39,285 nucleotides of DNA. It comes from an uncultured Chthoniobacterales bacterium (GTDB lineage: Bacteria > Actinomycetota > Acidimicrobiia > Acidimicrobiales > SHLQ01). Under the pieces are notes generated by a model. The model did not search any database and had not been told where the DNA came from. It saw only the letters and a program-made list of their open reading frames with translations. Positions within the stretch are counted from its first letter, which is position 1; every line of letters begins with the position of its first letter. Of the stretch, positions 5,876 through 38,955 are shown one piece after another. The translations under genes were made by a program, and so were the position numbers. The stretch spans positions 1 through 39,285 of the forward strand of contig CAXMRH010000153.1 of assembly GCA_964196045.1 (NCBI GenBank), written 5' to 3'.

Positions 5876-5955
5876 TTGACTCTACTGGCCGCGATCCAAG
5901 GCCCCCGAATCCACTTCGGTTCAGGACGGCCCTTCGGCATCGTGTGGTCGATGGT

Positions 5956-10380: not shown

Positions 10381-10797
10381 ATGACGATGAAGGAAGGGTT
10401 CGTGGACCAATCCGCAAGCAGCGAGGGCCCGGCGACGAGAATCGCTCGGCTCGAGCACGAGCTCGCACTCGCACTCGAACGAGCAGCCGTCGCCGAGGAA
10501 CAACTCAAACGTGTGCACATTGCCGTTCGGGCTTTCAAGCAAAGTCAGACGAATGCACACGCCCGTCGAGAAGATCTCATGAAGAGCGCACGCAAGCACG
10601 CCGATGAGATCGTCCGGAAGGCCAAGACGGAAGCCGAGAAACTTGAATCGGCGCAGGCGGTCAACCACTCGTCCTTGTACAACTCGTGGCTCGTCTCTGA
10701 TCCAAGTCTTGATGAGCGTTTGGACGACTATCTGCAGAGCGAATTCGAACCCGATAGGTCACGCGACTGGATGTTGAGCGAGGACAAGGCGAAATGA
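10381..10797 (+). CDS. Hypothetical coiled-coil protein (DivIVA- / ATPase-b-like heptad region)
   Basis: RIARLEHELALALERAAVAEEQLKRV...ARKHADEIVRKAKTEAEKLESAQ shows coiled-coil character and coding-like codon usage. The start is uncertain: the ORF opens at 10246 and the first ATG is at 10381. It competes with the antisense ORF 10162-10668, which looks non-coding. Confidence 0.45.
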   Translation: MTMKEGFVDQSASSEGPATRIARLEHELALALERAAVAEEQLKRVHIAVRAFKQSQTNAHARREDLMKSARKHADEIVRKAKTEAEKLESAQAVNHSSLYNSWLVSDPSLDERLDDYLQSEFEPDRSRDWMLSEDKAK

Positions 10798-10803
10798 GCT
10801 CCG

Positions 10804-12117
10804 TTACCGAAGCTTGAATTCGATCCGTCGACTTGCGACCTCGTCTTCAACTCCATCGACGAGCACTGGTTGGCTCTCACCGAATCCCTCTGCTGTTAGG
10901 CGAGTTCCGTCCACACCCTGACTGATTAGATAGACCCGCACCGCGTTCGCCCGACGGTCGGAGAGCCGTTGATTGGGTTCAGAAGGACCAACGGTGTCTG
11001 TGTGGCCCTCGATCAGCGCGTTGGCGTCGGGGTTCTCGGCGAAGTAGTCGACTGCCTTTTCCAGCTCAAGTTGACTGGCGGGAGCAATGACGGAGGAAAG
11101 GGGGTCGAACTGGATCGTGCCGAGTTGGATCACCTCGTTGATCGTCGGGGGTTCGAGCACAGTGTGGATGACAAGAACGTTCCCGTTGAGCGCTTCGAGA
11201 CCGTCGAGGGAGACGCGGGCAGTCCCGTTGAGGATGACGTCGTCCCCCTCGAGGGAAACATCGATGGGAAGCCCGACGCGCGAGGAGATCTGCCCGCCCG
11301 CGGCCTCGAGCAGAAGTTCGGGAGTCAACCGCTGGTCGAGGAAGTGATAACTGATGAGCGCCTCGGCTGCGGCGGGGTCCGTCGCAAGGCTGTTGAGCTG
11401 CTCGGGAGTAAGCGAGGAAATGGCCTCATCAGATGGAGCGAAGAGGGTGAACTCGATCTGATTGCCCTCATCATCGGTCTGAGCCTCGAGCAAGGCTTGT
11501 AAACCAAGCGGTCCGCCGAGTGAAGCAAACTGTCGGGTGCCACTCGACGCGCCGAGCAGCTCCCAAGCGGTTTGGGGGATCTCGGGAACGGCTTCCGTTG
11601 TCGATGGCGCCTCGGTACTTGGCGCCGCTGTCGAAGTGGTCTGTGGAGCGTCAGTGCTCGATCCCTCGGGGCTGCTCGTCGTGACAGAACTACTCAAGCT
11701 CTCTTGAGGATCGGAGAGGTTGTCATCGTCCGAGGAGCCAAATAGGTCACCCCAGAACACGAGGCCGAGAACTATCAGCAAGCCGATCAGCAGGAGCGGA
11801 AGCAGATATGCGATTTTCCGGCGATCGTCCTCCTCCTCGTCGACGGCGTTGTCGGCACGAACATCATTCGATTCGGACGGTACGACGAGCTCATAGGAAA
11901 TCGACGCCGCGGAAATGATCTCGAAGGTGTCCTCTTCGATCTCGTCCGCAGATTCGCTCTCTGGTTCCTGGGCCGGATCGTGTGCCTCGGTCGTGGGAGT
12001 GGCCTCAGGCTCATCGACCTCAGGCTCATCAATCGATACACGGATGCGCTCGAGCATCCCCTGGGCTCGTTCCGCAAGACTTTCGATGTTGTGCTCGCCT
12101 GGCGAGTATTCCGTCAT
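10804..12117 (-). CDS. Membrane-anchored fasciclin (FAS1) plus OmpA-like peptidoglycan-binding domain protein
   Basis: 437 aa. The layout is an acidic N-terminal segment, a single TM (IAYLLPLLLIGLLIVLGLVFWG), an S/T/P-rich linker, a FAS1 pattern (FTLFAPSDEAI...LISYHFL...VLVIHTVLEPP) and an OmpA_C pattern (IEGHTDTVGPSEPNQRLSDRRANAVRVYL...AEGFGESQPV). Confidence 0.8.
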   Translation of the reverse strand: MTEYSPGEHNIESLAERAQGMLERIRVSIDEPEVDEPEATPTTEAHDPAQEPESESADEIEEDTFEIISAASISYELVVPSESNDVRADNAVDEEEDDRRKIAYLLPLLLIGLLIVLGLVFWGDLFGSSDDDNLSDPQESLSSSVTTSSPEGSSTDAPQTTSTAAPSTEAPSTTEAVPEIPQTAWELLGASSGTRQFASLGGPLGLQALLEAQTDDEGNQIEFTLFAPSDEAISSLTPEQLNSLATDPAAAEALISYHFLDQRLTPELLLEAAGGQISSRVGLPIDVSLEGDDVILNGTARVSLDGLEALNGNVLVIHTVLEPPTINEVIQLGTIQFDPLSSVIAPASQLELEKAVDYFAENPDANALIEGHTDTVGPSEPNQRLSDRRANAVRVYLISQGVDGTRLTAEGFGESQPVLVDGVEDEVASRRIEFKLR

Positions 12118-12310
12118 TACAGCACCTTGTGTCGGCGGTCCCCCGGGGAGGACGCTAGCCCAGTCGCGGCGCTGGCTCAGTGACGATTCTTACCAGCGAC
12201 GAAGATGTCTCGCGTCCCGCGATGATCGAGATCTGAAGAGATCGCATGGTCGTCGAGTCCGCACCAGCCACATACGAATGACGTGGAGCTAAAGCCTGCT
12301 GGTTGAGTTG

Positions 12311-12394
12311 TGCGCGAGGGGGGACTTGAACCCCCACGCCCTTTCGGACACAGGCACCTGAAGCCTGCGCGTCTGCCAATTCCGCCACTCGCGC
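12311..12394 (-). tRNA. tRNA-Leu (anticodon CAG), CCA not encoded
   Basis: The reverse complement reads GCGCGAGTGGCGGAATTGGCAGACGCGCAGGCTTCAGGTGCCTGTG...GGGGGTTCAAGTCCCCCCTCGCGCA. It has a long variable arm and the anticodon loop TT-CAG-GT. Confidence 0.9.
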
Positions 12395-12492
12395 AAAGTA
12401 AGCGAAGGCCGAGGCTAGCGGCCTTTTGCCGATCTGGGGCGCGCTCCCGGGTTGCCGATGTACGCCGCCCAGCGGTTGTAGCGTTCGTGACC

Positions 12493-13161
12493 ATGGGACT
12501 TCGCGATCTGGAGCGTGCGATTGAACGGGGCGTCGACGGCGTGCTCGGTCGCGTCTTTCGATCCGAAGTGAGCCGCCTCGAGATCGCAAAGCGGGTGGAG
12601 CGTGAACTCGACGCTGGGACACGCCGAGGCGCTGCTGGTACACGGGTCATGCCGAACGAGATCGAGATCCGAATCCACCCCGATGACGCCAGGGTGCTCC
12701 ACGTAGACATCGACGAGATCGAACGCGAGCTCCTCGCGATGGCACGCGAGCATGCACGCGATCTTGATTGTGTCTTCGAAGGCCCCCTGGTTGTCACGCT
12801 CACCACCACACCCGAAGCGCTACGGGGCACGATCCAAGTATTCGCAACGGCCGAACACTCGATCGCTGGCGTACCGCCAGGCACACTGATCTATCCAGAC
12901 GGCTATCGCTATGACCTGGTTGCTTCCGGCGTCGACGGAATCGTCCTGGGTCGAGACCAACGATGCGACATTGTGATCGACGACGACCGGGCCTCGCGCG
13001 AGCACGCTCACGCGAGGCCGAGTGCGCGTGGCTGGATCGTAGAAGACATGAGCTCGACGAACGGTACGAGGGTCAACGGCTTCCGGACGTACGCTCAGCT
13101 TCTAGTCGATGGAGACCGCGTCACAATCGGCGCAACGACCTTTACATTCGACGCATCGTGA
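12493..13161 (+). CDS. fhaA: FhaA-like protein (DUF3662 N-domain plus C-terminal FHA domain)
   Basis: MGLRDLERAIERGVDGVLGRVF is the typical FhaA N-terminus. The C-terminal FHA pattern is LGRDQRCDIVIDDDRASREHA...STNGTRVNG. The ORF-track start at 12310 overlaps tRNA-Leu and was rejected. Confidence 0.85.
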   Translation: MGLRDLERAIERGVDGVLGRVFRSEVSRLEIAKRVERELDAGTRRGAAGTRVMPNEIEIRIHPDDARVLHVDIDEIERELLAMAREHARDLDCVFEGPLVVTLTTTPEALRGTIQVFATAEHSIAGVPPGTLIYPDGYRYDLVASGVDGIVLGRDQRCDIVIDDDRASREHAHARPSARGWIVEDMSSTNGTRVNGFRTYAQLLVDGDRVTIGATTFTFDAS

Positions 13162-25695: not shown

Positions 25696-26628
25696 TCAGT
25701 TGTTATGGCTGGGGCGGCCGTTGCCGTCTTGCGGGGTGCCGAACATGTTCGAGTTCAGGCGAGCATCGTTGCAAATCTGACGCATGACATCGCCGAGGCC
25801 TTCTGGATCATCGCTCTGCGATCCGTGGGGTCCAAGGACCCAACCTTCGGCAACGCCGACACGATCGCCCACGACATCGAAGACTCGTCCGGTGATGCTC
25901 GCGGACTCGGAAGACGCAAGCCAGGTAGCCACGTTGGCGATCCAGCGAGGGTCCATGCCGCCGATCTGCTCTTCAGTGAGATCCGAGAAGCCAGGCAGGT
26001 CTTTGGTCATGCGGGTGTAGGCCGCAGGTGCGATGGCGTTGCAGGTGACTCCGTAGTTTGCGAGCTCCATGGCAACGATGGTTGTGAAGGAGGCAATGCC
26101 TGCCTTGGCTGCGCCGTAGTTGGACTGGCCGACGTTGCCGTAGATGCCCGAAGGGGACGAGGTGTTGATGATTCTGGCATCTGGTTGATTGCCGGCCTTG
26201 GACTGTTCACGCCAGTACTTTGCTGCGTGGTGGGTGGGGCCGAAGGTGCCCTTCAGGTGCACGGCGATGACCGCGTCCCAATCGGATTCCTCCATCTTGA
26301 AGATCATTCGGTCGCGCAAGATACCTGCGTTGTTGATGAGGATGTCGAGCCCACCGAAGGTGTCGATTGCTTGGTGGATCATGGCCTCTGCCTGACCGAA
26401 GTCAGCAACATTGGAGCCATTGACGACGGCCTCGCCCCCGAGCGCAGCGATCTCGTCGACCACGGACTGCGCTGGCGTGACGTCGCCGCCAGCACCGGCC
26501 ATGTCTCCGCCGAGATCGTTCACGACTACCTTTGCACCCTTGCTGGCGAGCGATAGTGCGTGCTCGCGGCCGATCCCTCGACCAGCCCCAGTAACGATCG
26601 CCACTCGACCCTCAACCAAACCGCTCAT
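25696..26628 (-). CDS. SDR-family oxidoreductase (classical NAD(P)-binding type)
   Basis: 310 aa with TGAGRGIG, NNAG and the S...YxxxK triad (SNYGAAKAG). Confidence 0.9.
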   Translation of the reverse strand: MSGLVEGRVAIVTGAGRGIGREHALSLASKGAKVVVNDLGGDMAGAGGDVTPAQSVVDEIAALGGEAVVNGSNVADFGQAEAMIHQAIDTFGGLDILINNAGILRDRMIFKMEESDWDAVIAVHLKGTFGPTHHAAKYWREQSKAGNQPDARIINTSSPSGIYGNVGQSNYGAAKAGIASFTTIVAMELANYGVTCNAIAPAAYTRMTKDLPGFSDLTEEQIGGMDPRWIANVATWLASSESASITGRVFDVVGDRVGVAEGWVLGPHGSQSDDPEGLGDVMRQICNDARLNSNMFGTPQDGNGRPSHNN

Positions 26629-26687
26629 GATGTGCTCCTCGTACAGAAAGACTCAGGCCGAATCTTACCGCCCGGTAACCTCTATTT

Positions 26688-27007: not shown

Positions 27008-27066
27008 AGCGGAGCTCGCGTAGCGACCATGTCGGTTTCCGCGGATCTCGACCGGCAGCGTCGAGA
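27008..27066 (-). repeat. Intergenic repeat 'L module', copy B, in the prfC 3' region
   Basis: The minus strand reads tctcgac-gctgccg-gtcgaga then tccgcggaaaccgacatggtcgctacgcgagctccgctc. It has the same stem as copy A with a different loop. It starts 14 nt after the prfC stop and lies in the same orientation as prfC. Confidence 0.8.
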
Positions 27067-27079
27067 ACAAGACAGGTCG

Positions 27080-28672
27080 CTAGCTCTCTCCGGCGACGAG
27101 TTTCTCCAGGACGAGTTCTGGGCGTTCTCCGATGAGGCGATCCAGCCAGTAGGGGCTCTCGAAGAGTGCGAGAAGTGTTCCATCTGAGCGCTCAAGTACA
27201 TCGACACCTTGCATGGAGCGGAGATCTCGAGTTGATGCTTCGTCGGTGACGCGGGCAACGGAATAGTTGGTCATCGACAGCTCGACCGGGGCGCCGAACT
27301 CGTTCTCGAGCCGGTGCGTGGCCACTTCGAACTGCATTGGGCCCACGGCGGCGAGAACCGGTGCCTGATCACCGATGTCGGGATCGCGCAGCACCTGGAC
27401 CACACCCTCTTCATCGAGCTGCGATACTCCTTTGCGAAACTGTTTGAACCTGCTGGTATCGGTGACACGGGCGATCGCAAAGTGTTGTGGGGCGAACGAT
27501 GGAATCCCGGGGAACTCCACCTTGTCCTCTTGCCACAAGGTGTCGCCGATCCGCACGTCGTTCGCGTTCACGAGGCCGACGATGTCGCCGGGCCAGGCTT
27601 CGTCGAGCGTCTCGCGGTCGGTTCCGAACGCGGTGTGGGCGTACTTGGTGGCGAGCGGCTTTCCCGTCGCCTGATGGGTTACGACCATGCCTCGCTCGAA
27701 CCTGCCAGAACACACGCGGAAGAAGGCCGTGCGGTCTCGGTGAGCCTTATCCATATTGGCCTGCACCTTGAACACGAACCCGGAAAAAGGTGCATCGAGG
27801 GCTCGGTCGGTGCCGGTTGCATCCTCTTTCGGCAATGGTGACGGAGTCAGGTCCACGACAGCGTCCAGCAGGAGCCGAACACCGAAGTTCGTGAGTGCTG
27901 ACCCGAAGAACACCGGCGTGGTTACGCCGGCGAGGAAAGTCTCCTCGTCGTACTCGGCGCCGACGGCTTCGAGCAGGCCGAGTTCTTCCACGGCGTCTTG
28001 GTAGGGATCGCCCTCTTCTCTCATGGCACGTTCGGGTTCCACAATCTCTTCAGGTGCGATCGTGGCACCACGGGCGGTTCGGGTGAATCGAACGAAGTCT
28101 CCGGTGCGCTGGTCGAGAACTCCCCGGAATCCTTCAGAGGAACCGACAGGCCAGGACAAGGGCGTGGGGGTCAGGGCGAGTTGTTTCTCGATGTCGTCGA
28201 GGATTTCCAGCGGCTGGAGCGAGGGACGATCCCATTTGTTCACGAACGTGAGGATCGGGATTTCTCGGTCGCGGCACACTTCGAAGAGCTTCAGCGTCTG
28301 TGGCTCGATTCCCTTGGCTCCATCGAGCACCATGATTGCGGCGTCGGCGGCAGCGAGAACTCGGTACGTGTCCTCGGAAAAGTCGCGGTGACCTGGGGTG
28401 TCGAGCAGGTTGATTATGTGGTCCCGGTAAGGAAACTGAAGCACGGTCGAGGTGATCGAGATGCCTCGTTGTTGTTCCAGCTCCATCCAGTCAGATGTTG
28501 CAGATCGTCGACCGGAGCGAGCCTTCACGGACCCGGCCTCTGTGCCGAGCGCACCTCCGTAGAGGAGGAACTTCTCCGTGAGCGTGGTTTTGCCGGCGTC
28601 AGGGTGCGAGATGATCGCAAAGGTCCGACGGCGGTTCGCCTCGGAAAGCACCTGGTCTGAAGAGGTCACCAC
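27080..28672 (-). CDS. prfC: Peptide chain release factor 3
   Basis: 530 aa with RRTFAIISHPDAGKTTLTEKFLLYGGA (G1 motif) and DTPGHRDF, and overall RF3 length. Confidence 0.95.
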   Translation of the reverse strand: MVTSSDQVLSEANRRRTFAIISHPDAGKTTLTEKFLLYGGALGTEAGSVKARSGRRSATSDWMELEQQRGISITSTVLQFPYRDHIINLLDTPGHRDFSEDTYRVLAAADAAIMVLDGAKGIEPQTLKLFEVCRDREIPILTFVNKWDRPSLQPLEILDDIEKQLALTPTPLSWPVGSSEGFRGVLDQRTGDFVRFTRTARGATIAPEEIVEPERAMREEGDPYQDAVEELGLLEAVGAEYDEETFLAGVTTPVFFGSALTNFGVRLLLDAVVDLTPSPLPKEDATGTDRALDAPFSGFVFKVQANMDKAHRDRTAFFRVCSGRFERGMVVTHQATGKPLATKYAHTAFGTDRETLDEAWPGDIVGLVNANDVRIGDTLWQEDKVEFPGIPSFAPQHFAIARVTDTSRFKQFRKGVSQLDEEGVVQVLRDPDIGDQAPVLAAVGPMQFEVATHRLENEFGAPVELSMTNYSVARVTDEASTRDLRSMQGVDVLERSDGTLLALFESPYWLDRLIGERPELVLEKLVAGES

Positions 28673-28747
28673 TCAAGCCAAGCGCCTCGGCTCATGTTTT
28701 CCACACGTGGTGGCTCCTCGGTCGTCACCGGGCCCAGGTGAAGCTGA

Positions 28748-29791
28748 TCAGCTTGACCTGGCGGCCAGGAACTCTGCAAGCTCGATAAGACGAAGTCCAG
28801 CATCCGCAGCGAGGTCGGCTGATTCGATGGCGGCTATCGCCTCGGTCGTGAGTGCGTCGATCTGCTGCTCGACCTCGGCGAGGGCCCCACTGTCCCGCAG
28901 GATCGACTGCAACTCGGTGACTTGGGTGTTTGAGAGGTCGGTTCCCGCCAGGCTGAGCTTCTCGGTCTGGTCGGGGGTTGCGAGATGACGGGCCCGAGCG
29001 AGCAGCGGTGTGGGCTTACCTTCGCGAAGATCGTCGCCGACTGGCTTGCCCGTTACCTCGGGTTCGCCGAAGGCGCCAAGGATGTCGTCTCGAAGCTGGA
29101 AGGCGATCCCAAGGGGCGTGCCGATGTGTCCAAGAACTGCTTCCAAATCGGTGCGTCCGGTGAGGGCGGCACCCATCTGTAGTGGGCGGACGATCGTGTA
29201 CCGAGCAGTCTTGTACTCGACAATTCGTTCGGCCGTTTCTAGCGAAACATCGCCCCGGGCGGTGCCGACGACGTCGAGGAATTGTCCGAGGTTCACTTCG
29301 ACGCGAAGGTCGTTCCACAACGTTCGAACCTCGGGCCCAACATCGTGGAGCAACACGTCGGACAGGACGAGCGAGACGTCACCAGCCAAGATCGCCACCG
29401 CTTCGCCGTAACGGCGCGCCTCGCCGCGCCAACCGTTCGCTTCATGTAAGCGGATCGCACGTACATGAGCAGTTGGGGCGCCACGTCGGGTAGGGGAGCC
29501 GTCCATGACGTCGTCGTGAAAGAGCGCGAAGGCCTGAAGGAGCTCGAGTGCTGCGCCGAGATTGGCGACCGCACCTATCGATCCGTCGCCTCCAGCTCCC
29601 ACGTATCCCCAATAGGCCATGGCAGGGCGAACCCTTTTCCCGCCAGCCAGAACGAGCGTTTCCAGCAGGTCGATCGTCTCGCCGAACAGCGGGTCGAGGG
29701 TTCCCCACTCGGCGCGGTATTGGTCCAAGATTTCCGACAGGCGCGCATCGACCTGACCCGCAGGGATGAGCAGGGCTGTAGGGGTGGTCAC
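28748..29791 (-). CDS. Polyprenyl diphosphate synthase (GGPP-synthase-like, IdsA/IdsB type)
   Basis: Contains FARM (LFHDDVMD) and SARM (FQLRDDILGAFGEPEVTGKP). It overlaps the xseB stop by 4 nt. Confidence 0.85.
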   Translation of the reverse strand: MTTPTALLIPAGQVDARLSEILDQYRAEWGTLDPLFGETIDLLETLVLAGGKRVRPAMAYWGYVGAGGDGSIGAVANLGAALELLQAFALFHDDVMDGSPTRRGAPTAHVRAIRLHEANGWRGEARRYGEAVAILAGDVSLVLSDVLLHDVGPEVRTLWNDLRVEVNLGQFLDVVGTARGDVSLETAERIVEYKTARYTIVRPLQMGAALTGRTDLEAVLGHIGTPLGIAFQLRDDILGAFGEPEVTGKPVGDDLREGKPTPLLARARHLATPDQTEKLSLAGTDLSNTQVTELQSILRDSGALAEVEQQIDALTTEAIAAIESADLAADAGLRLIELAEFLAARSS

Positions 29792-30039
29792 TCGTCGTCG
29801 CCGAGCTCTTCGAGGTCGGCGACGATCTGCTCGACCTGCGTCCGGGCAGACGTGATTCGGCTTCGACAGAACCGAATGAGTACGGAGGCCCGCTCCACTC
29901 GTTCGGCGAGGACGTCGACGTCGAGCGCTTCGTCTTCGAGTTCGAGCAAGATGTCGTCGAGCTCGGCCACGGCGGACGAATAGTCGAGCTCGGGCCTGTC
30001 GGGTGAGGAGCTGGGTGCGTCGGGATCAGTGGTGCTCAT
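29788..30039 (-). CDS. xseB: Exodeoxyribonuclease VII small subunit
   Basis: 83-aa helical acidic protein (YSSAVAELDDILLELEDEALDVDVLAERVERASVLIRFCRSRI). It overlaps the xseA stop by 4 nt. Confidence 0.85.
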   Translation of the reverse strand: MSTTDPDAPSSSPDRPELDYSSAVAELDDILLELEDEALDVDVLAERVERASVLIRFCRSRITSARTQVEQIVADLEELGDDE

Positions 30040-31337
30040 GGTTGATCTTCCTGAGTGCGCTCGGCGAGCGTGACGTTGCTGATGATCGATCCGTCGACCA
30101 GCGCGGTGACCAGTGTGTCTCCTGGCTTGGCCTGATCGACAGATCGGAGGACTTCTCCGTCAGAGGTTGTGGTGATCGACCACCCGCGGCGGAGCAGAAC
30201 TGCCGGATCTGCAGCCCGCACCCGAGCGTCGAGATGTTCGAGTCGGGTCTCGGCTGAACGGAGTGTGCGATCGACGGTCTTCGGGAGCTGTCGCGATCGC
30301 ACAGTAAGGCGATGGTCCGCGAGTTGGAGGCCTTCACGGCCGGCGAGGGCACCGCGCCGGGCGATGGCGGCGAGGCGTTGTTGGGCCAGACGAGATTGTG
30401 CGTGTGCCACGACTGAGATTGCCTCCCACGAGCCCTCGACGTGTTCGACATATCGGCCGACGGCTCGACAGAGCTGGGCCGCGACTGCCGTTGGTGTCTT
30501 CAACGAGGTGTGGGCAACGACGTCGGCCACGGACCGGTCCACTTCGTGGCCGATACCCGTGAGGACCGGCACCGGGGCGCTGGCGATCGCACGAGCGAGT
30601 TGTTCGTTGTCGAACACCGCGAGGTCGCCGCGCGAGCCGCCACCACGGATGAGCACGATCACGTCCACGCTCTCGCGATACATCGCACGAAGACCGCCGA
30701 TGAGAGTGCTCGCCGCCAGGTCACCCTGGACCCTGCTGTCGCAGACGACGACTCGAAACGCGAACCCGGTGCTCTCGAGCTCGGTGAGGAAGTCTGCAGC
30801 TGCGGCGCTGCCTGTACTTGTGATCAGACCGACTCGAAGGGGAACCAGTGGAAAGGGGAGCGCTTTGTTCTGCTCGGTCACACCTTCGGAGTGCAATCGA
30901 GCGATCAGCGCATCTCGTTCGGCCGCCATCGCTGCCAGGATGTACCGCGGGTCGATGCCGGTCATCCGAAGCTGCAGTCGGCCTTGCGGCGGGTAGTAGT
31001 CGACGGCGGCTTTGATGCGTACGGCCATCCCGTCCACCAGTCGGCCGACGTTCTGGCGTTTGAGCTGATTGTTGACGATCTGTTTCGTCTGGCTGAACAG
31101 CACGACCGACAGCCGGGCTGTCGATGGCGTTCCTGGTGTCGCTGGCTCGACCAGGTCGAAGTACACGTGGCCAGCCCGCGACCGGTTCAGGTTCGAGATC
31201 TCGCCTTCGACCCAAAGGTCGTCCGGAAAGATCTGCTCCATGGCCCCGGCGATGATCGAGCCAAGTTGCACGACAGTGAAGCTCGGTTCATCACGCGGCG
31301 GAGCTGGGACCTCGGTATTGAACAGCGGTGTATCCAC
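30036..31337 (-). CDS. xseA: Exodeoxyribonuclease VII large subunit
   Basis: 433 aa with an N-terminal OB-fold pattern (LWVEGEISNLNRSRAGHVYFDL) and a catalytic core (VIVLIRGGGSRGDLAVFDNE, TGIGHEVD). Confidence 0.92.
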   Translation of the reverse strand: MDTPLFNTEVPAPPRDEPSFTVVQLGSIIAGAMEQIFPDDLWVEGEISNLNRSRAGHVYFDLVEPATPGTPSTARLSVVLFSQTKQIVNNQLKRQNVGRLVDGMAVRIKAAVDYYPPQGRLQLRMTGIDPRYILAAMAAERDALIARLHSEGVTEQNKALPFPLVPLRVGLITSTGSAAAADFLTELESTGFAFRVVVCDSRVQGDLAASTLIGGLRAMYRESVDVIVLIRGGGSRGDLAVFDNEQLARAIASAPVPVLTGIGHEVDRSVADVVAHTSLKTPTAVAAQLCRAVGRYVEHVEGSWEAISVVAHAQSRLAQQRLAAIARRGALAGREGLQLADHRLTVRSRQLPKTVDRTLRSAETRLEHLDARVRAADPAVLLRRGWSITTTSDGEVLRSVDQAKPGDTLVTALVDGSIISNVTLAERTQEDQP

Positions 31338-31348
31338 GACGCGCGAGG

Positions 31349-33301
31349 TTAGTTGTCCGCTATGACGTCGACTCGGAGCAGGTTCTCGTACAGGGTGTCG
31401 TAGAGACCTGACAGGTCACGAAGTTCCTGGTGGGTGCCCTGCTCGACGACCCGTCCGTCGTCGACCACGATGATCTGATCTGCTGACGTGATCGTCGAGA
31501 GTCGATGGGCAATTACGAGCGAAGTCCGACCTTTGAGGGCATGTTCGAGCGCCTGTTGGATCAGGTGCTCGTTCTCGGTGTCGAGGTGACTCGTCGCTTC
31601 GTCGAGGATGACGATCGCGGGGTCTTTGAGAAGCATGCGAGCAATCGCCAGACGTTGTTTCTCGCCGCCAGAGAGTCGGTAACCGCGTTCGCCGACGACC
31701 GTGTCGAAGCCATCGGGGAGGTCGGCGATCACCTGGTGGATTCTTGCCGCCTTCGTGGCCTCGACTAGCTGTTCCTCCGTCGCGGTGGGGTTGGCGTACC
31801 GAAGGTTCGCGCCGACGGTGTCGTGGAACATGTGCGGGTCCTGGTTCACGACTCCGATCGATCTCCTGAGACTGTCCTGAGTGACGCCCCGGATGTCTTG
31901 ACCGTCGACCTCGATCGAACCGCCCGATACGTCATAGAGACGCGGGACCAGGTTGAGCAGCGTGGACTTACCCCCGCCGGAAGGGCCGACGATGGCCACG
32001 AGTTGCCCAGCCTCGATCTCGAGGTCGACTCCGTGCAGCACTTCACGTTCGACGCCGTTGCCGCTGTAGGTGGGAGCGTCGGTAAGAGGGATGAGACCAG
32101 TACCGATTCGGCTGCCGGCGCCACGAGTCGGTAGACGGCGAGTGGTGCTGTCTTCGAGCGATGCGATGGTTGACTCATCGGCGCTCGGGTAAGTGAAGAC
32201 CACGTCGCGGAACGCCACATTGCCCTTGACGTTCGTGAGTTCGGTTGCATCGGCAGCATCGACGATGGGGTTGGACATGTCAAGAATCTCGAAGACACGC
32301 TCGAATGAGACCAACGCACTGGTCACGTCGACACGCGCGTTGCTAAGGGCCGTCAATGGTAGGTACACGCGCACCACCAACAGACTGAGTACGGCCAGGT
32401 TGCCGAGGGTGATGGTCTCGTTGATCACCATGCGGCCGCCAATCCAGTAGATCGCAGCAGTGCCCAATGCGCCCACCAGGGTCATTGCGGTCATGAACAC
32501 GCGGGCCAACATCGCGGAGCGGATGCCGATGTCGCGAACTCGTGCGGCTCGGCTCGAGAAGTCGTCTGCTTCGACACGTGGCTGGCCGAAGAGTTTCACG
32601 AGCATGGCGCCGCTCACGTTGAAACGCTCGGTCATGGTCGTGTTCATCGAGGCGTTCAGCTCCATCGATTCCCGGGTGATCTCGGCCATGCGGACGCCGA
32701 CCCTGCGGGAGGGAATGAGGAAGAACGGCAGGATGACCAGGCTGAGGAGCGTCAGCCGCCACTCGATGGCGAACATCGTGACCAGCGTGATGCCGAGGTT
32801 GATGACGTTGCCGATGACCGTTGACAGAAAGGTCGTGAAGGCACGCTGAGCGCCGATGACGTCGTTGTTCAGGCGCGAGATGAGGGCGCCGGTCTGGGTC
32901 TGGGTGAAGAAACCAAGGGGCATGTCCTGCACGTGGCGGAAGAGCTTGTCTCGAAGGTCGTAGATGATTCCTTCGCCGATTCGGCTTGACAGCCACCGTT
33001 CGATCATCGAAATGCCCGCCGACAAGATTGCGGCCCCTACGACGATGATGCCGAGCACGTTGAGGCGAGAGCGATCCCCGGTTTCTTGACCGATGGGGAT
33101 TGCGTTGTCGATGATGTCACCGAATGCAAGTGTCGGAACGAGGCCGATGATCGTGCCGAGGATTATCAGGAAGATGAACCCGACGATCATTCGGCGATAC
33201 GGTCCGGAGAAACCCCAGACGCGGGCGACGGTTTTTCGGTCGATGCCCTTGGGGTCTTCGGCGCCAGTGCTCATCGAGTGCAGAATCTGCATGGGATGCA
33301 T
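31349..33301 (-). CDS. ABC exporter, fused TMD-NBD (MsbA/MdlB-like)
   Basis: 650 aa with six TM helices, then Walker A (GPSGGGKST), the signature LSGGEKQR and Walker B (ILDEATS). An extended loop is present at the start of the NBD. Confidence 0.9.
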   Translation of the reverse strand: MHPMQILHSMSTGAEDPKGIDRKTVARVWGFSGPYRRMIVGFIFLIILGTIIGLVPTLAFGDIIDNAIPIGQETGDRSRLNVLGIIVVGAAILSAGISMIERWLSSRIGEGIIYDLRDKLFRHVQDMPLGFFTQTQTGALISRLNNDVIGAQRAFTTFLSTVIGNVINLGITLVTMFAIEWRLTLLSLVILPFFLIPSRRVGVRMAEITRESMELNASMNTTMTERFNVSGAMLVKLFGQPRVEADDFSSRAARVRDIGIRSAMLARVFMTAMTLVGALGTAAIYWIGGRMVINETITLGNLAVLSLLVVRVYLPLTALSNARVDVTSALVSFERVFEILDMSNPIVDAADATELTNVKGNVAFRDVVFTYPSADESTIASLEDSTTRRLPTRGAGSRIGTGLIPLTDAPTYSGNGVEREVLHGVDLEIEAGQLVAIVGPSGGGKSTLLNLVPRLYDVSGGSIEVDGQDIRGVTQDSLRRSIGVVNQDPHMFHDTVGANLRYANPTATEEQLVEATKAARIHQVIADLPDGFDTVVGERGYRLSGGEKQRLAIARMLLKDPAIVILDEATSHLDTENEHLIQQALEHALKGRTSLVIAHRLSTITSADQIIVVDDGRVVEQGTHQELRDLSGLYDTLYENLLRVDVIADN

Positions 33302-33381
33302 GTGTCGAGGCTATGCCTCAATTCGCTGCGGCCAGCCGCAGACGCCTCGTGCAGGCGCCGCGGCGAGCTACAGGTCGGTGC

Positions 33382-33741
33382 CTACTTGGCGAGACGGTCG
33401 CGGATCTCGGTGAGGAGATCGATTTCAGATGGTCCACCCACTGCTTCTTCCTCAGCTTCGTTCGTCTTGTTGTATGCCTTCACGAGGAAGAACATCACGA
33501 TTGCCACGAGCATGAAGCCGACGACCGTTGTGATCCATCGTCCGACAAGGATGTCTGCATCGCCGAGACCGATGCTGATGCTGTCGAAGTTCGGCTCGCC
33601 GACGATGGCGGCGATGATCGGCATGATGATGTTGTCGATGAACCCCGTCACGACGGGCGCAAATGCGAGCGCCAAGATCAGGCCTACCGCCGTTTCGAAG
33701 ATGTTGCCGTTGTTGATGAAGTCCTTGAATTCTTGAATCAC
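33382..33741 (-). CDS. mscL: Large-conductance mechanosensitive channel
   Basis: 119 aa. MIQEFKDFINNGNIFETAVGLILALAF...IDNIIMPIIAAIVG matches the canonical MscL N-terminus and TM1. Confidence 0.92.
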   Translation of the reverse strand: MIQEFKDFINNGNIFETAVGLILALAFAPVVTGFIDNIIMPIIAAIVGEPNFDSISIGLGDADILVGRWITTVVGFMLVAIVMFFLVKAYNKTNEAEEEAVGGPSEIDLLTEIRDRLAK

Positions 33742-34063: not shown

Positions 34064-34158
34064 CACCAAGTTTACTCAGTGAGAGCCGCTTTCGGTCAGT
34101 CGCGTCCTACGCCACGCAACGAGTTCGACGGGCAACCTCGTGGGACTACGGTGCAGAG

Positions 34159-34905
34159 ATGCATGAGAAGCCAGTCGCAATCATCTCCAACGCGAAGCAC
34201 TACGTCGGTCCTGAACTAGCCGTGACGATGGCCTCAGCCGGGTACGACCTGGTCCTTGGTGAGCCATCTCCGGAGACGGTTGAGGCGGTCACGGCTGCTG
34301 GCGCGGACAGCTGGGTCGTGGATGGAGCGCTCGATCTATCCGACCCTGCTTCGGCTCCTCGTTTGGTCGACATGGCCATGGATGCGTACGCGCGGATCGA
34401 CTCAGCTGTGTTCTTCAGTGGCGAGATCGTGCTCGGCAAGTTCCTTGATGCGACCGATGCTGATTTCGAGAAGGTCGTGTCAGGGAATTTCGAGGCGGCG
34501 TTTCGGTCATTGCGGGCCTTCGTGCATCCGATGGTCGAGGCCGGCAGCGGACAGATCTTGGCCATCACCAGCGCTTCGGGAATCAAGGTCACGCCGATGG
34601 CTTCTCTGTATTCCTCGACGCGCGCCGCCGCCAACATGTTGGTGCGCAACGTTGCCGCCGAGGTCGCCCGAAGTGGTGTGCAGGTAAATGCGGTCGGAAC
34701 CAACTTCATGGATTTCCCGATGTTCCGTGCCGCCATGGGTGCCGATGATCCCGAAATCATGGCCAAGATCGAGAAGAACGTGCCCATGGGGCGACTCGGC
34801 ACGATGACCGAGTTCGCACAGTTCTGTCGTGTGTTTCTCGATGGCACCTCGCGTTTTCAGACAGGCCAGGTCGTCGGGTTCGACGGAGGTTGGTCCGCGC
34901 AGTGA
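34159..34905 (+). CDS. SDR-fold protein with halohydrin dehalogenase (HHDH) signatures
   Basis: 248 aa. The N-terminus AIISNAKHYVGPEL (S10-x4-Y15-x-G17) replaces the TGxxxGxG cofactor motif. The catalytic region ITS138-x12-Y151-SST-R155 gives S-x12-Y-x3-R, with Arg in place of the SDR Lys. The N-terminus resembles HheC AIVTNVKHFGG, recalled from memory. Confidence 0.65.
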   Translation: MHEKPVAIISNAKHYVGPELAVTMASAGYDLVLGEPSPETVEAVTAAGADSWVVDGALDLSDPASAPRLVDMAMDAYARIDSAVFFSGEIVLGKFLDATDADFEKVVSGNFEAAFRSLRAFVHPMVEAGSGQILAITSASGIKVTPMASLYSSTRAAANMLVRNVAAEVARSGVQVNAVGTNFMDFPMFRAAMGADDPEIMAKIEKNVPMGRLGTMTEFAQFCRVFLDGTSRFQTGQVVGFDGGWSAQ

Positions 34906-35468
34906 AGGCCGGAATCCTCGAGACCGAACGTCTGGCCATCCGACCATGGCGCGTCCACGAGGCGGAGATTCTTTTTGCGATTCGCAGTGACATCGGAGTC
35001 GCGAAGTGGTTGGACCCGCCCGAGCCCTGGACCGGCCTAGAACAAGCCGTTGATGCGATCGTCGGATACAGCCGACGAATCGAGACTGAACCTCCGCTCG
35101 GCGATTGGGCAGTCGTGCCGAACGAGCTCGGCCATCCCGTGGGCTCAGTCTCGCTACACAAGCTCCCCGAGGATGGCTTGTTTGCGACTGGTTGGTATCT
35201 CCACCCCGACGCCTTCGGGAACGGCTATGCCCCCGAGGCAGCGAAGGCCATGATCGCCGCTGGGTTCGCCGGCGGGCTAACCGAGATATGGGCCGTCATG
35301 TTCGAGCAGAACGAGGCTTCTGCGCGTGTAGCCACGAAGGCGGGGATGACCGACCTGGGCCTGCGCGATGACCCTTGGTACGGAACAGTGGAGCACCCGC
35401 AGTCTCGAATGTTCTGCGCCTACGCAGAGGGCTCGACCGGGTGGAGTAGTCCGTCGGTGACGTCGTAG
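34902..35468 (+). CDS. GNAT-family N-acetyltransferase (RimJ/RimL-like)
   Basis: The N-terminus ILETERLAIRPW is typical of the RimJ-like GNAT subgroup, and GYAPEAAKAMI matches the acetyl-CoA binding region. The GTG at 34902 overlaps the upstream TGA (GTGA). Confidence 0.75.
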   Translation: MKAGILETERLAIRPWRVHEAEILFAIRSDIGVAKWLDPPEPWTGLEQAVDAIVGYSRRIETEPPLGDWAVVPNELGHPVGSVSLHKLPEDGLFATGWYLHPDAFGNGYAPEAAKAMIAAGFAGGLTEIWAVMFEQNEASARVATKAGMTDLGLRDDPWYGTVEHPQSRMFCAYAEGSTGWSSPSVTS

Positions 35469-35944
35469 ACGAATCCGCTGATGTGGTCCTTGTTGGGCAG
35501 GAACGGTGTGAGCTCAAGGCGTTGCATCGATTGAGCAACGTCGGCGTATGGATCCGAGAAGGCCTCCAAAGACCACCAGGGTTTCACGCCCAGTTCGGCT
35601 TCTAGTTCGTCTCGGAACTTGGCCTCGTCGACGTGCTGCAGCCCACAGTCGGTGTGGTGAATGAGAATGATCTCGCGGGTCCCGAGAAACCGCTGTGACA
35701 GACACAGCGACCGGATGACGTCGTCGGTGATCACACCGCCGGCGTTGCGGATGATGTGCGCTTCGCCATTGCCCAGACGGAGGATCTTGAATGTGTCCAT
35801 TCTCGAGTCCATGCACAACACGATGGCCAGGTGGCGCAACGGTTGCACTTGAAGGTCGGCATCGTCGAACACCGCTGCTTGAGCAATGTTGTTTCCCACG
35901 AGCTCGTCGACGCTTGGTTCGAAATCGTCGCTCACGATTGGCAC
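35420..35944 (-). CDS. Beta-class carbonic anhydrase
   Basis: 174 aa with zinc ligand motifs CMDSR and HHTDCG. Its 3' end overlaps the convergent GNAT gene by 49 nt. Confidence 0.88.
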   Translation of the reverse strand: MPIVSDDFEPSVDELVGNNIAQAAVFDDADLQVQPLRHLAIVLCMDSRMDTFKILRLGNGEAHIIRNAGGVITDDVIRSLCLSQRFLGTREIILIHHTDCGLQHVDEAKFRDELEAELGVKPWWSLEAFSDPYADVAQSMQRLELTPFLPNKDHISGFVYDVTDGLLHPVEPSA

Positions 35945-36018
35945 TCCACTTCAGTCATTGGACAGGCAGGATACCCAAGACACAAACGATGGCAGGGGAG
36001 GGTGCGCCCCCGCTAGGG

Positions 36019-37313
36019 CTATACCGGAATTTCCGTTCCATCGGGGCGCAAGGTGTGCCAGGACCCATAATGGTCTCGATAGATCGTGAACCCCTTTTGT
36101 TTCCAACGATTATGTTTCCCGCACAGCGGCGCCCCGTTGCCAGGGTTGGTTCTGCCTTCTCTCGAGTGTTCGAGAACGTGGTCGTTCTCGCACTTCGATA
36201 CCGGCGTGCAACAGCCAGGCCACACACAATGGGCATGAGATAACTTCACGGCGAGTCGAGCGCCGCCGGTGAACCGTCGAGCGGCCCCTTGGTCGGTGAC
36301 CATGCTCTTGGCATCGATCAACACCCGCCGAATGCGGCCCACGATCGACATGTCGAACATCTCGGTCGCGTCGACGGGTATTCCGTCGATAATCTGGCAC
36401 CCGATTGTGTCGGTCTCGATGCAATCGCGTGGGTCGCTGGGAGCTGTCGGGGCGCGAGCGTCGCCCTTGAACTCACCGTCGTACTCGGCGATGTCATCCT
36501 CGTCTTCGAGGTCGCTGCTGTCGTCTTCTTCGCCGAAGAACTTCTCGGCCATGTCTTCGAAGGTGTCGGCGTCCCACATGATGTCGTGCACGAAGTCGGC
36601 AGGCACTGCGCTGTTGAGGTTGGCCGCAGCATCGATGAAGCTCTGCCAAAGTGCATCGGCTCGACGCTTTTGGATCGTGCGGGGCAGGTGCTCGCTCGTC
36701 GCCGCATCGCCATGTTCTGCCCGTGCCTTCTCCCAGTCGGCGATCGTCTCGGCGTCGAGGCAACGATCGAACACCTCGAAGATCTGGAGGCCCTGCATCG
36801 ACGCGAAGCTCGCCACGAAGTCCTACGTGGTGTCGAAGTTCTGGGTCATGCGGACGTTGCGGTCTTCGTGTGCCCGCTCGTTTGGCGGCGTGGGTTCGCA
36901 TGCACCAAGCTCAGCGACCTGATCTGGTCGGTGCCCAACGCTCCCGACCGATAGGCCATGCCAATGTCTGGGCACGTGTCGGTCAACCTTGCTACCCGAT
37001 CCGGGGCAGCAGCTTCGCCGTTGCTCAGCTTGGCGTGATGTCGCACTATTGCCGTGGAGTGGCCGTCACCGAGGTGGAAGCGGCACTCCTCGATGGCCGA
37101 CATCACCTCGACGGCAGCGTGATCGGCGAGCCGTCGAACCTGCTCTACCTCTTGAATCAGAGTGATCGAATCACGAGCGTTCGCTGGTTCGATTCCGGCT
37201 GATTGCAGCGCAGCGAAACCAGCGACAATCTGCTCGATCGCCACCCCAATCTCTCTGTTCGCTACCCGTGACCCCATACGAACAAGTGTACGATTAGTGT
37301 ATGACAACGACAT
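36019..37313 (-). pseudogene. DUF222 / HNH endonuclease gene (13E12-repeat type) broken by a frameshift and an in-frame TAG
   Basis: The N-terminal ORF 36846-37313 has a DUF222-like pattern (IQEVEQVRRLADHAAVEVM...GALGTDQIRSLSLVHANPR). The C-terminal ORF 36019-36816 carries the HNH motif (CVWPGCCTPVSKCENDHVLEHSREGRTNPGNGAPLCGKHNRWK). The two are in different frames. Hand translation of the junction shows a third-frame bridge ending in TAG at about 36825. Confidence 0.65.
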
Positions 37314-37384
37314 CTCGACACTTCCGGTCGAGAACCGCGGAAACCGGCATGCTCGATCGCCTCCGGCTCACTCTCCTCTTCGCT
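37313..37384 (+). repeat. Intergenic repeat 'L module', copy D
   Basis: tctcgac-acttccg-gtcgaga then accgcggaaaccgg. It matches copy A at 30 of 32 positions and then diverges. It starts at the initiation codon of the DUF222 pseudogene, on the opposite strand. Confidence 0.7.
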
Positions 37385-37597
37385 TTGGATGCTCTGCGGA
37401 TACCCATCGGGTTGTCCATCGACTCGAGCCGGTGGCGGTTCTCCCAAGCCCACGCCAGCGATTCACCCAGGGCTTCCTTCGCGCGATCCAAACCCAAGCC
37501 GCCCAAAAACGTTCGCCAGAGTTATGGCCGAGCTTCGCCAAGCAGGGTCTCCGTATCGACGTTCATACCGACTAAACGTCTAGCGCTGTGAAACCCG

Positions 37598-38419
37598 CTA
37601 CGTCGGAATGAGTGTGTTTGCGAAGATCTGCCAGGCCAGCACGCTCTTGGCCACGAAGCTGAGCATGATGTAGACCCGCTCGCCGTGGAGGTAGTCGGCC
37701 CAGCGGCCCTTGCCTCGGTACTGCAGCCATTGGTTGATGGCGAATGTGTTGAAGAAGAAGAAGATCGACGCGATGATGCCGTAGACAAATCCGGGAGGGC
37801 CCTCTCCTCCTTCTTGGCTCACGTTGAACCAGAGCGGAACGAGGATGGCCAGCCAGGGGCCGATGCCGGCTACGCAGCCCATCCAGAACGGTGACCACCA
37901 CACGGTTTTGCGCTTGACGTCGTCGGTCGAGTTGACCATTTCCATGATCCAGCCGAAAAAGATCATTGAGACGTTGGCGAAGGCCAGTCCGATGAGTGCA
38001 GCCAGGTCGGTGATTCCCGTCGTCGCTGCGATCAACACCATCATCAGCGTGGACGACAGCGCGTATTCGATCCAGCGGAAGCGATTGCGCCCATGGCGGA
38101 GCTCGCTCTTGTACTTCGGGAACACGACGAGTGCGATCAGGAAGTGGAAGAGGGCCGACAGCAACGAGAACGCAGCAACCCCAGCGGCCAGCGGAATCCC
38201 GAAGAACTCGTTGAGGGCTCCATCTGCGAGGGGGGTTCCAGGAGGTCCGCTGATGTTGAACCCGCTCACGGGGAGCTCAAAGTCGAGATCGCCCAGCACG
38301 ATCATCGCTAGGCCGGTCACGAGGTGAAGGACACCAGCTCCCAAGTTCAGCTTGCGGAGGCGGCTTGCATTGTCGTCGGTGAGCTCGACGACCTTTCGGT
38401 CGAAGTCGATGTTTGGCAT
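37598..38419 (-). CDS. Heliorhodopsin
   Basis: Seven-TM protein with blocks matching my recollection of heliorhodopsin 48C12: NISGPPGT, LSALFHF, FRWIEYALSSTLMMVLIA (counterion Glu), NVSMIFFGW, PFWMGCVAGIGPW, PGFVYGIIASIFFFFNTFAINQWLQYRGKGRWADYLHGERVYIMLSFVAKSVLAWQIF. The Schiff-base Lys codon is at 37646-37648. The start is taken at ATG 38419 (MPNIDFD); the ORF opens at GTG 38512. Confidence 0.85.
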   Translation of the reverse strand: MPNIDFDRKVVELTDDNASRLRKLNLGAGVLHLVTGLAMIVLGDLDFELPVSGFNISGPPGTPLADGALNEFFGIPLAAGVAAFSLLSALFHFLIALVVFPKYKSELRHGRNRFRWIEYALSSTLMMVLIAATTGITDLAALIGLAFANVSMIFFGWIMEMVNSTDDVKRKTVWWSPFWMGCVAGIGPWLAILVPLWFNVSQEGGEGPPGFVYGIIASIFFFFNTFAINQWLQYRGKGRWADYLHGERVYIMLSFVAKSVLAWQIFANTLIPT

Positions 38420-38591
38420 GGGTGTGGTTCTAGACGCCAGCGCCACAGGATGAATGATCAAGGGGGCCCGGATCCCAGCTGGACCTGAACTGAGGCCGAC
38501 TCGTCGAGCCACTGCAACACTGTCGCTCGCTTGTAACGTGGTGGGCTGCTTCGATGCTGAGCTGGCGCGTGCTGGCGAAGGGTCGTTGTCT

Positions 38592-38679
38592 GGAGGAGTG
38601 CGAGAGCGGCCGAATCGGCACGCTTGGAAAGCGTGTGACCTTTACGGGTCCGTGGGTTCGAATCCCACCTCCTCCGCCA
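38592..38679 (+). tRNA. tRNA-Ser (anticodon GGA), CCA encoded
   Basis: GGAGGAGTGCGAGAGCGGCCGAATCGGCACGCTTGGAAAGCGTGTGACCTTTACGGGTCCGTGGGTTCGAATCCCACCTCCTCCGCCA. It has a long variable arm and the anticodon loop TT-GGA-AA. Confidence 0.9.
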
Positions 38680-38730
38680 AACCGGGCCGTATGTCGCGCT
38701 TTCGGGGCCGACTAGAAGTGCTGTTGTGCA

Positions 38731-38955
38731 TTAGAAAAATGTATCGATTGTCATGGCAACCGTTTCATTGCCTTCGTCTCGACTGAGTCCAAGTTTGCGT
38801 CGGACTTGGAGGCCGGTGGTGATGCAGCGCGCTGCTGCTTCGGGGTCGAGGTCTTCGCGTAGGGTCCAGTCCGCTATCCCTCTGCGAATAATGGCCGCGA
38901 ACGTTCGTTCCTTCTCGCCGTGTTTCGACGCAGTCTGCTGCGGACAGTGGGTCAT
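38731..38955 (-). pseudogene. Possible remnant of a TetR-family regulator (C-terminal domain only)
   Basis: The 74-aa ORF contains RRGIADWTLREDLDPEAAARCITTGL, which resembles the ligand-domain helices of TetR proteins. No intact HTH lies upstream; only a degenerate VSQIALVRLSVNSAI appears in another frame. The region has visibly lower GC. Confidence 0.3.

Follow-up and report, generated by a model that had tools for sequence, protein, structure and literature searches.

An intact heliorhodopsin gene beside tRNA-Ser(GGA) in an Acidimicrobiia contig: a typical family member at a probably conserved site

A heliorhodopsin (HeR) gene lying between a tRNA gene and a decayed endonuclease gene raises two questions: whether it is a resident of its chromosome or part of an acquired element, and what its product may do there. 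The gene considered here occupies positions 37598-38419 (minus strand) of contig CAXMRH010000153.1, whose 39,285 nucleotides, analysed as a whole, are called the window below. An earlier inspection of the letters (the sequence-only reading) had described it as a HeR gene with no retinal pathway nearby, in an accessory and possibly acquired context. Our results indicate that it is a genuine, intact and typical member of the well-described HeR family. The reading that we prefer, at a probability of about 0.85, is that of an orthodox Acidimicrobiia (Acidimicrobiales-type) HeR, vertically inherited at a conserved site, whose product would be a non-pumping light sensor with a slow photocycle that binds partner proteins. 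The gene and its two key codons are:

37598..38419, minus strand: HeR coding sequence of 273 amino acids (aa), with ATG at 38417-38419 and TAG at 37598-37600, identified by PF18761, NF038020 and its match to 48C12
37646..37648, minus strand: AAG codon of Lys258, by alignment the retinal Schiff-base lysine (48C12 K241), invariant among the 30 aligned HeR sequences
38066..38068, minus strand: GAA codon of Glu118, by alignment the counterion (48C12 E107), likewise invariant

The open reading frame (ORF) is intact. A longer version with a GTG start reaches 38512, and the ATG start is preferred because it lines up with the N-termini of the homologues, whose lengths are 264-285 aa. The protein matched the Pfam family Heliorhodopsin, PF18761, over the whole profile (positions 1-242 of 242; E=6.8e-90; 301 bits, cutoff 26.7), as well as the NCBIfam equivalog NF038020, 'heliorhodopsin HeR' (positions 1-244 of 244; 287 bits, cutoff 100). 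No other Pfam family, the type-1 rhodopsin profile included, matched it at E<=1. The identification of the ORF as a heliorhodopsin is confirmed by these profile scores. Compared with the 48C12 HeR structure 6su3, it showed 49% identity over 244 aligned residues (E=5e-67). A large-database search returned 4755 relatives at E<=1e-20, the named ones being labelled as HeR of Acidimicrobiales, Ilumatobacter or Aldehydirespiratoraceae, and a scan of species-representative genomes gave 80 HeR loci, mostly from Acidimicrobiales. The closest of them, L002, lies on a 4.87-Mb contig of an Acidimicrobiia metagenome-assembled genome (MAG), and its HeR is 86% identical to that of the window. This relative (MDW3176762.1, MAG Padam5) is annotated 'heliorhodopsin HeR' at NCBI. 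HeRs of Acidimicrobiia are already catalogued and automatically annotated by standard pipelines, and the window HeR is of an already known kind.

The residues on which HeR function depends in 48C12 are kept. All mapped functional positions of that protein (H23, S76, H80, R104, E107, Y108, E149, Q213, Y226, E230, S237 and K241) have identical counterparts in the window HeR (H32, S88, H92, R115, E118, Y119, E160, Q230, Y243, E247, S254 and K258, respectively), among which E118, H32, H92 and S254 are invariant in the 30-sequence alignment. The sequence-only reading had placed the Schiff-base lysine in the peptide SFVAKSVLAWQ and the counterion in FRWIEYALSS; both peptides are present, and K258 and E118 align with K241 and E107 of 48C12. 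The 18 Lys and Arg residues outside the membrane are distributed in a strongly one-sided manner: the N-terminus and the BC, DE and FG loops hold every one of them, whereas the AB loop, the EF loop and the C-terminus have no such residue. The positive-inside count predicts a cytoplasmic N-terminus, the inverted topology that had been expected, and this predicted orientation is consistent with the solved HeR structures.

An AlphaFold2 model built from 30 homologues (mean predicted local distance difference test score, pLDDT, 81.9; predicted template-modelling score, pTM, 0.78) contains seven long helices and a β-hairpin in the AB loop, with strands at residues 48-55 and 68-76. The best Foldseek matches in the PDB were 6su4, 6su3, 6uh3 and 9ljj, at template-modelling (TM) scores of 0.91-0.93 normalised to target length, and the 48C12 structures superposed at a root-mean-square deviation of 2.2 Å. 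TaHeR followed at TM 0.88, and type-1 rhodopsins reached TM 0.5-0.7 with 8-17% identity.

The chromosomal setting of the gene was compared with the related loci L002, L003, L004, L005, L012 and L015, and with L001, a second assembly contig that continues the window. The features around HeR are:

38731..38955, minus strand: 74-aa ORF that converges on tRNA-Ser and weakly resembles, below threshold, the TetR C-terminal domain; first gene not syntenic with L002
38592..38679, plus strand: tRNA-Ser(GGA), divergent from HeR (ARAGORN; Rfam RF00005, 50.4 bits); same arrangement in L002
38420..38591, no strand assigned: intergenic stretch of 172 bp separating HeR from the divergent tRNA-Ser and presumed to hold the promoters of both (from coordinates); colinear with L002
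37314..37347, plus strand: copy of a dispersed intergenic repeat, with other copies at 4844-4895 and 27024-27066
36019..37313, minus strand: DUF222/HNH endonuclease pseudogene in two ORF fragments in different frames (tblastn with the L012 homologue)
35420..35944, minus strand: short β-class carbonic-anhydrase-like gene, co-directional with HeR (PF00484, 44.5 bits, partial)
34890..35468, plus strand: GNAT acetyltransferase, opposite in strand to HeR (PF13302, 86 bits); orthologues in L002, L003 and L004
34159..34905, plus strand: short-chain dehydrogenase/reductase (SDR) oxidoreductase, opposite in strand to HeR (PF13561 and PF00106); orthologues of 70-85% identity in L002, L003, L004, L005 and L012
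33943..34041, minus strand: ffs, the signal recognition particle RNA gene, in a conserved housekeeping block (Rfam RF00169, 74.2 bits)
31349..33301, minus strand: MsbA-like type-I ABC exporter, a half-transporter whose membrane and ATPase domains are fused (PF00664 and PF00005)
28748..29791, minus strand: short-chain trans-polyprenyl diphosphate synthase (PF00348, 175 bits), syntenic in L002

Colinearity with L002 extends over about 12.6 kb of the window, beginning with tRNA-Ser and HeR and reaching past prfC as far as the next SDR gene, and part of this order recurs in L003, L004 and L012. The colinear DNA blocks are:

Window 37599-38681, L002 9739-10809: tRNA-Ser and HeR
Window 34147-35924, L002 10955-12802: carbonic-anhydrase-like gene, GNAT and SDR
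Window 27033-33740, L002 13416-20129: ABC exporter, xseAB, polyprenyl synthase and prfC
Window 26025-26639, L002 20192-20807: next SDR gene

The only break in this colinearity is window 35925-37598, which holds the HNH pseudogene, as against a spacer of 146 bp in L002. HeR genes are rare on plasmids, found in 2 of 72,556 plasmid records and there at 39-43% identity to the window protein; none was found in phage records. Vertical inheritance is favoured because of the extensive colinearity with L002, the partial synteny in L003, L004 and L012, the maintenance of the tRNA-Ser/HeR pair, and the small number of plasmid-borne HeRs.

In the mechanism that we propose, the gene stands at a conserved site, divergent from tRNA-Ser(GGA) and upstream of the genes for the carbonic-anhydrase-like protein, GNAT, SDR, ffs, the ABC exporter, xseAB, the polyprenyl synthase and prfC. 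Its product is predicted to be a seven-helix protein with the N-terminus inside. Retinal would form a protonated Schiff base with Lys258, for which Glu118 would be the single counterion, supported by His32, His92 and Ser254. By analogy with the characterised proteins 48C12, TaHeR and OcHeR, it would bind all-trans retinal and undergo a slow photocycle without pumping ions, and its positively charged cytoplasmic loops (BC KYKSELRHGRNRFR, FG YRGKGRWADYLHGER) may act by binding one or more partner proteins and modulating them. In the case of OcHeR, an ABC exporter is bound and up-regulated via charged residues of the intracellular loops (PMC11109279), and HeR binding to glutamine synthetase and to photolyase is mentioned there from earlier work. 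A generic role as a slow-cycling light sensor acting through positively charged cytoplasmic loops is most likely, judging from these relatives. The decayed DUF222/HNH gene and the variable region past the tRNA would be incidental neighbours, outside any HeR system.

Several points weigh against this reading. The regulatory mechanism would be carried over from relatives that are about 50-60% identical, and the window HeR is known here from its sequence and predicted fold. When the ORFs within 6 kb of HeR were clustered across 81 related loci, no cluster apart from HeR itself and the ORFs overlapping it occurred in more than 12 of them, so the locus names no specific HeR partner. The window represents about 1% of such a genome, which is too small to settle whether retinal is synthesised or taken up. 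Finally, a recent preprint puts forward light harvesting with a carotenoid antenna as the primary role of HeRs (Kornilov et al., 2025).

The last point corresponds to the alternative that survives best, although we consider it unlikely: that the protein is mainly a two-chromophore light harvester, with an external xanthophyll at the lateral fenestration, and not a regulator. The fenestration ('carotenoid-binding-site') motif is intact in the window HeR, where F178 and F223 correspond to the aromatic residues 162 and 206 of 48C12, C182 and A227 to the small residues 166 and 210, G185 to Gly169, and N224 to Asn207. The model as given in the preprint also predicts a monoderm host, which fits the window organism, since the closest loci belong to Acidimicrobiia/Acidimicrobiales and the window carries the cluster fhaA-fhaB-pstP-rodA-pbpA-pknB together with crgA. 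However, by the preprint's figures the same motif places the window HeR in a 91% majority of HeRs, and so says nothing specific about this locus. The carotenoid evidence that the preprint presents includes analysis of sequences, models from AlphaFold, docking and lipid densities seen in crystals, and the energy-conserving output of harvesting is undefined for a protein that does not pump.

Where the sensor would obtain its chromophore was considered next to the claim that no retinal pathway lies nearby. The sole isoprenoid gene of the window, at 28748-29791, had been called GGPP-synthase-like (geranylgeranyl diphosphate synthase) and placed about 8 kb from HeR. It does encode a polyprenyl synthase, 7.8 kb away, but it is not an equivalog of CrtE: its best NCBIfam match was the mycobacterial farnesyl/geranyl diphosphate synthase (317 bits, cutoff 600), and CrtE scored 64 bits (cutoff 460). 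The first of its aspartate-rich motifs reads DDVMD and has Phe at position -5, which we take to be a sign of a short-chain product. No member of the blh, crtY, crtB or crtI families was found in any main ORF of the 39-kb window. To this extent the claim holds, but the absence is not notable, being the published norm for HeR. The blh gene is rare beside HeR genes and genome-wide in HeR-only organisms (bioRxiv 10.1101/2021.02.16.431466). A full retinal pathway was reported in 1 of 381 HeR-only genomes, with β-carotene oxygenase in 55% and retinol dehydrogenase in 63% of such genomes (bioRxiv 10.1101/2021.02.01.429150). In the window organism, the chromophore might be made by genes elsewhere in the genome or be taken up through the lateral fenestration formed by F178, C182, G185, F223, N224 and A227.

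A neighbouring gene product would be the most direct candidate for a partner. Ten groups of recurrent HeR neighbours have been described, namely glutamine synthetase, NAD+ synthetase and photolyase, as well as MerR, TerC, ABC transporter, SDR, α/β hydrolase, DUF2177 and DUF2238 (Cho et al., 2024, PMC11109279). Two of these classes, overlooked by the sequence-only reading, are present in the window as the SDR (34159-34905) and the ABC exporter (31349-33301); the other eight were not found in it, and no gene of the ten groups is co-directional with the window HeR in the same predicted operon. The SDR and the exporter fall outside the HeR operon because the former is on the opposite strand and the latter is 4.3 kb away, past convergent genes and ffs. 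In addition, SDRs near HeRs have been suggested to be retinol dehydrogenases (bioRxiv 10.1101/2021.02.01.429150).

It is conceivable, but quite improbable in our view, that HeR is coupled to a local product: the β-carbonic-anhydrase-like protein, the SDR acting as a retinol dehydrogenase, or the MsbA-like exporter in the manner of OcHeR-OmrDE. Besides the two recurrent neighbour classes and the retinol dehydrogenase proposal, such a coupling is favoured by the SDR and exporter orthologues lying near HeR in four to five close relatives, and by L002, where the orthologue of the carbonic-anhydrase-like gene (74% identical) begins 132 bp after HeR on the same strand. Nevertheless, the window neighbours recur in the nearest relatives only, the SDR in L002, L003, L004, L005 and L012, the exporter in L002, L003, L004 and L012, and the carbonic-anhydrase-like gene in L002 alone. 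The adjacency of this last gene to HeR is seen in just 2 of 81 loci. SDR-like genes occur in 12 of the 81 loci, a count made without comparison to the genome background. The SDR (34159-34905) reaches no specific NCBIfam equivalog cutoff, and the exporter is likewise below every such cutoff. Housekeeping genes (ffs, xseAB, prfC) stand among these neighbours, so the synteny is explained by common ancestry rather than by functional linkage.

A narrower form of the same idea is that HeR is functionally paired with the downstream, same-strand carbonic-anhydrase-like gene in this Acidimicrobiia lineage, the two being split by the HNH pseudogene in the window. We regard this as highly speculative; if true, it would mean light-modulated interconversion of CO2 and bicarbonate, with a partner class outside those described for HeRs. 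A different conserved neighbour was observed outside the clade of the window. In L057 (10899-15479) and 11 other Actinomycetales loci, a conserved ORF lies on the same strand at a median of 68 bp downstream of HeR. The L057 ORF is 1526 aa long, with thiamine-pyrophosphate enzyme domains confined to its C-terminal third, which could be explained by a gene fusion or by over-extension of the reading frame in high-GC DNA.

Whether the HeR gene belongs to the conserved chromosome or to an island was judged by what lies on either side of the tRNA. The tRNA-Ser(GGA) itself, 172 bp upstream of HeR, was rightly recognised, being found by both ARAGORN and Rfam. Synteny with L002 stops at its 3' end, beyond which the window and L001 have a TetR-like fragment and a MacB/FtsX ABC system as against polysaccharide-biosynthesis genes in L002; L001 865-4183 continues the non-syntenic block past the window end at 39285. 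The region past the tRNA 3' end is thus variable, and HeR is on the opposite (5') side of the tRNA. This boundary, together with a mobile-type DUF222/HNH gene downstream of HeR, is what would favour the suggestion that HeR came with a recently acquired island integrated at tRNA-Ser(GGA). We consider that very unlikely, since the tRNA-HeR pair and about 11.5 kb beyond it are colinear with L002, which places HeR within a conserved block. When repeats of the tRNA-Ser 3' end (18-45 nt) were sought in the window, in L001 and in L002, with 4.6 kb past the tRNA covered, only the tRNA itself was found, and no integrase was seen; an island confined to the 3' side, to which HeR would not belong, may exist beyond this stretch. 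The GC content is 0.57-0.62 throughout, at genome level, in bins of 100-500 bp, and GC at third codon positions (GC3) is 0.76 in HeR, inside the range of the other window ORFs. The low-GC flank that had been pointed out exists, but only as a single intergenic dip of about 100 bp to 47% GC, within and next to the 51-bp spacer between the converging tRNA-Ser and 74-aa ORF, beside a terminator-like hairpin at 38762-38745. With no tRNA-end repeat, normal GC, a syntenic HeR in L002 and no close HeR relatives on plasmids or phages, the signs of a tRNA-associated island are missing for HeR, and the proposal of an accessory, possibly acquired context is not upheld.

The DUF222/HNH gene does not point to a recent arrival either. 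In tblastn searches with the intact 453-aa homologue of L012, the segment 36019-37313 matched at 59-62% identity, with about 38 codons gone and a frame change at about 36888-36894, followed by an in-frame stop at about 36822; the description of this neighbour as decayed was therefore correct. The L012 homologue scores above the gathering score for DUF222 (PF02720, 35.6 bits against 24.4) and weakly for HNH, and the window fragments themselves give no DUF222 match and a sub-threshold HNH score of 13 bits. The segment is thus a DUF222/HNH-family pseudogene by homology to L012 and not by a direct profile match. An intact gene of this kind is found downstream of HeR in L012 (9843-11204) and L015 (about 11340-12770), where HeR is 69% identical to that of the window, and it is absent from the HeR locus in L002, L003 and L004. 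Comparison of the window flanks with the 146-bp spacer of L002 showed no clear junction or target duplication at the ends of the segment. The element may have been inserted in the window lineage or lost from L002. That L012 and L015 both keep it whole at this site speaks for long residence, and the divergence of the pseudogene from these copies is about like that of HeR. Taken together, these comparisons make the DUF222/HNH gene look less like a newcomer than like a long-standing resident that some lineages have lost. As an observation in its own right, its presence downstream of HeR in three Acidimicrobiales lineages could reflect either an old resident lost repeatedly or a mobile gene that prefers this site.

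The remaining alternative, a light-driven or light-gated proton transporter like the viral V2HeR3, is the least credible: proton transport is reported for that one viral HeR as cited in PMC11109279 and PMC12873467, whereas the window HeR falls with the bacterial type of 48C12 (49% identity, every tested functional residue being kept), the actinobacterial OcHeR showed no pumping in vesicles (PMC11109279), and the transporting viral subfamily is described in the Kornilov preprint as being without the fenestration motif that the window HeR has. The vertically inherited, non-pumping sensor thus remains our reading of the gene.

Its significance is nonetheless limited. In the absence of a conserved partner gene, a domain fusion or an unusual residue, the locus has little significance beyond its correct annotation, and it does not make the general questions about HeR, such as its physiological role and chromophore source, easier to test. 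Its practical use is to provide surveys of HeR diversity with one further natural sequence, in which the DE loop is slightly more basic.

Some further observations concern other HeR records. The two plasmid-borne genes, both annotated as heR, are NZ_CP141705.1 4149-4946, on a mobilizable 10.5-kb plasmid of Lactococcus petauri, and CP069395.1 72588-73352, from Chloroflexota; it is unusual for HeR to be carried by so small a mobilizable plasmid in Lactococcus. Two records attribute HeR to diderm phyla, namely the contig L014 (JBLIMK010000015.1, labelled Verrucomicrobiales) and the protein P0103 (Paracrocinitomix sp.). The former has 61.8% GC and, across HeR and 1.6 kb of flanking DNA, about 90% nucleotide identity to L016, a locus from Acidimicrobiales, and is probably a mis-binned actinobacterial contig and not a diderm HeR.

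Other observations concern the window itself. The 172-bp region between HeR and tRNA-Ser is presumably the promoter region of both; a sigma-70 consensus scan upstream of HeR gave no match, a result that is uninformative for Actinobacteria. The 74-aa ORF at 38731-38955 is downstream of the MacB/FtsX permease and ABC ATPase genes and may be the remnant of a truncated regulator. The ffs gene is inverted in L002 within otherwise colinear flanks, with 98.6% identity over 141 bp to L002 13081-13221 as against about 75% in the flanking DNA; in L003, L004 and L012 its orientation is that of the window. At 33535-33609, ARAGORN called a tRNA-Leu(gag) of 75 nt whose anticodon falls at position 31, for which a focused search found no Rfam tRNA at E<=0.01; this is probably a false call, as the missing long variable arm would be atypical.

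The dispersed repeat (4844-4895, 27024-27066 and 37314-37347, and L002 20096-20130) is about 35-55 nt long and contains CTCGAC-N7-GTCGAG and CCGCGG. Its three copies in 39 kb compare with none expected by chance, and one copy stands directly past the prfC stop, at the orthologous site in L002 as well. It folded no better than shuffled sequences (z -0.7 to 0.1) and matched no Rfam family, which speaks against a structured RNA.

The rest of the window is core actinobacterial chromosome, including, besides the fhaA-pknB cluster and crgA, a trpG/pabA-type amidotransferase gene, prfC, xseAB and ffs. Adjacent genes at 5812-7898 encode AIR-carboxylase-like (5-aminoimidazole ribonucleotide carboxylase; LarB-type, PF00731) and nickel-insertion (LarC-type, PF01969, 410 bits) proteins, and presumably resemble genes for the biosynthesis of the nickel-pincer cofactor. 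Two ORFs on the minus strand, 8662-10149 (495 aa) and 10162-10668 (168 aa), had no Pfam match at E<=0.001, the former having no NCBIfam match either; both adjoin an OmpA/fasciclin-domain gene at 10804-12117.

Compared with known systems, the window HeR is most distant from the type-1 rhodopsins (bacteriorhodopsin, proteorhodopsin and actinorhodopsin). It has the seven-helix retinal fold and the helix-7 Lys in common with them (TM 0.5-0.7), but it has no type-1 Pfam match, the opposite predicted membrane orientation and 8-17% identity in structural alignments. OcHeR-OmrDE of Ornithinimicrobium cerasi (PMC11109279) is closer. Like the window HeR, OcHeR comes from an actinobacterium and has positive charges in its intracellular loops 1 and 3; the HeRs of Ornithinimicrobium are about 59-61% identical to the window HeR, which also has a type-I ABC exporter gene in its neighbourhood. 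In contrast to OmrDE, the window exporter is a single half-transporter gene and not a heterodimer pair, and an OcHeR-like link is unsupported in the window because 4.3 kb separate this gene from HeR and the two do not share an operon.

48C12, from an actinobacterial fosmid (PDB 6SU3, 6SU4 and 6UH3), resembles the window HeR over its full length (49% identity, TM 0.91-0.93). The two proteins have in common the Schiff-base Lys, the single Glu counterion, the His pair, the polar cytoplasmic residues, the fenestration motif, the AB-loop β-hairpin and the N-in charge bias. The window HeR differs in about 10 additional N-terminal residues and in its cytoplasmic DE loop, where five inserted residues, VKRKT, bring three more positive charges. 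The substitutions among the positions compared (S109A, I116M, L143F, F164M and L238F) are few and conservative.

The closest counterparts are found in Acidimicrobiia. The HeR of an Ilumatobacter sp. is 65% identical to that of the window, and L002 (MDW3176762.1, 86% identity) differs from the window locus in having no decayed DUF222/HNH gene between HeR and the carbonic-anhydrase-like gene and in the genes past the tRNA. Consistent with inheritance at a conserved site, L002 has the same divergent tRNA-Ser(GGA)/HeR pair and the same downstream gene order as the window.

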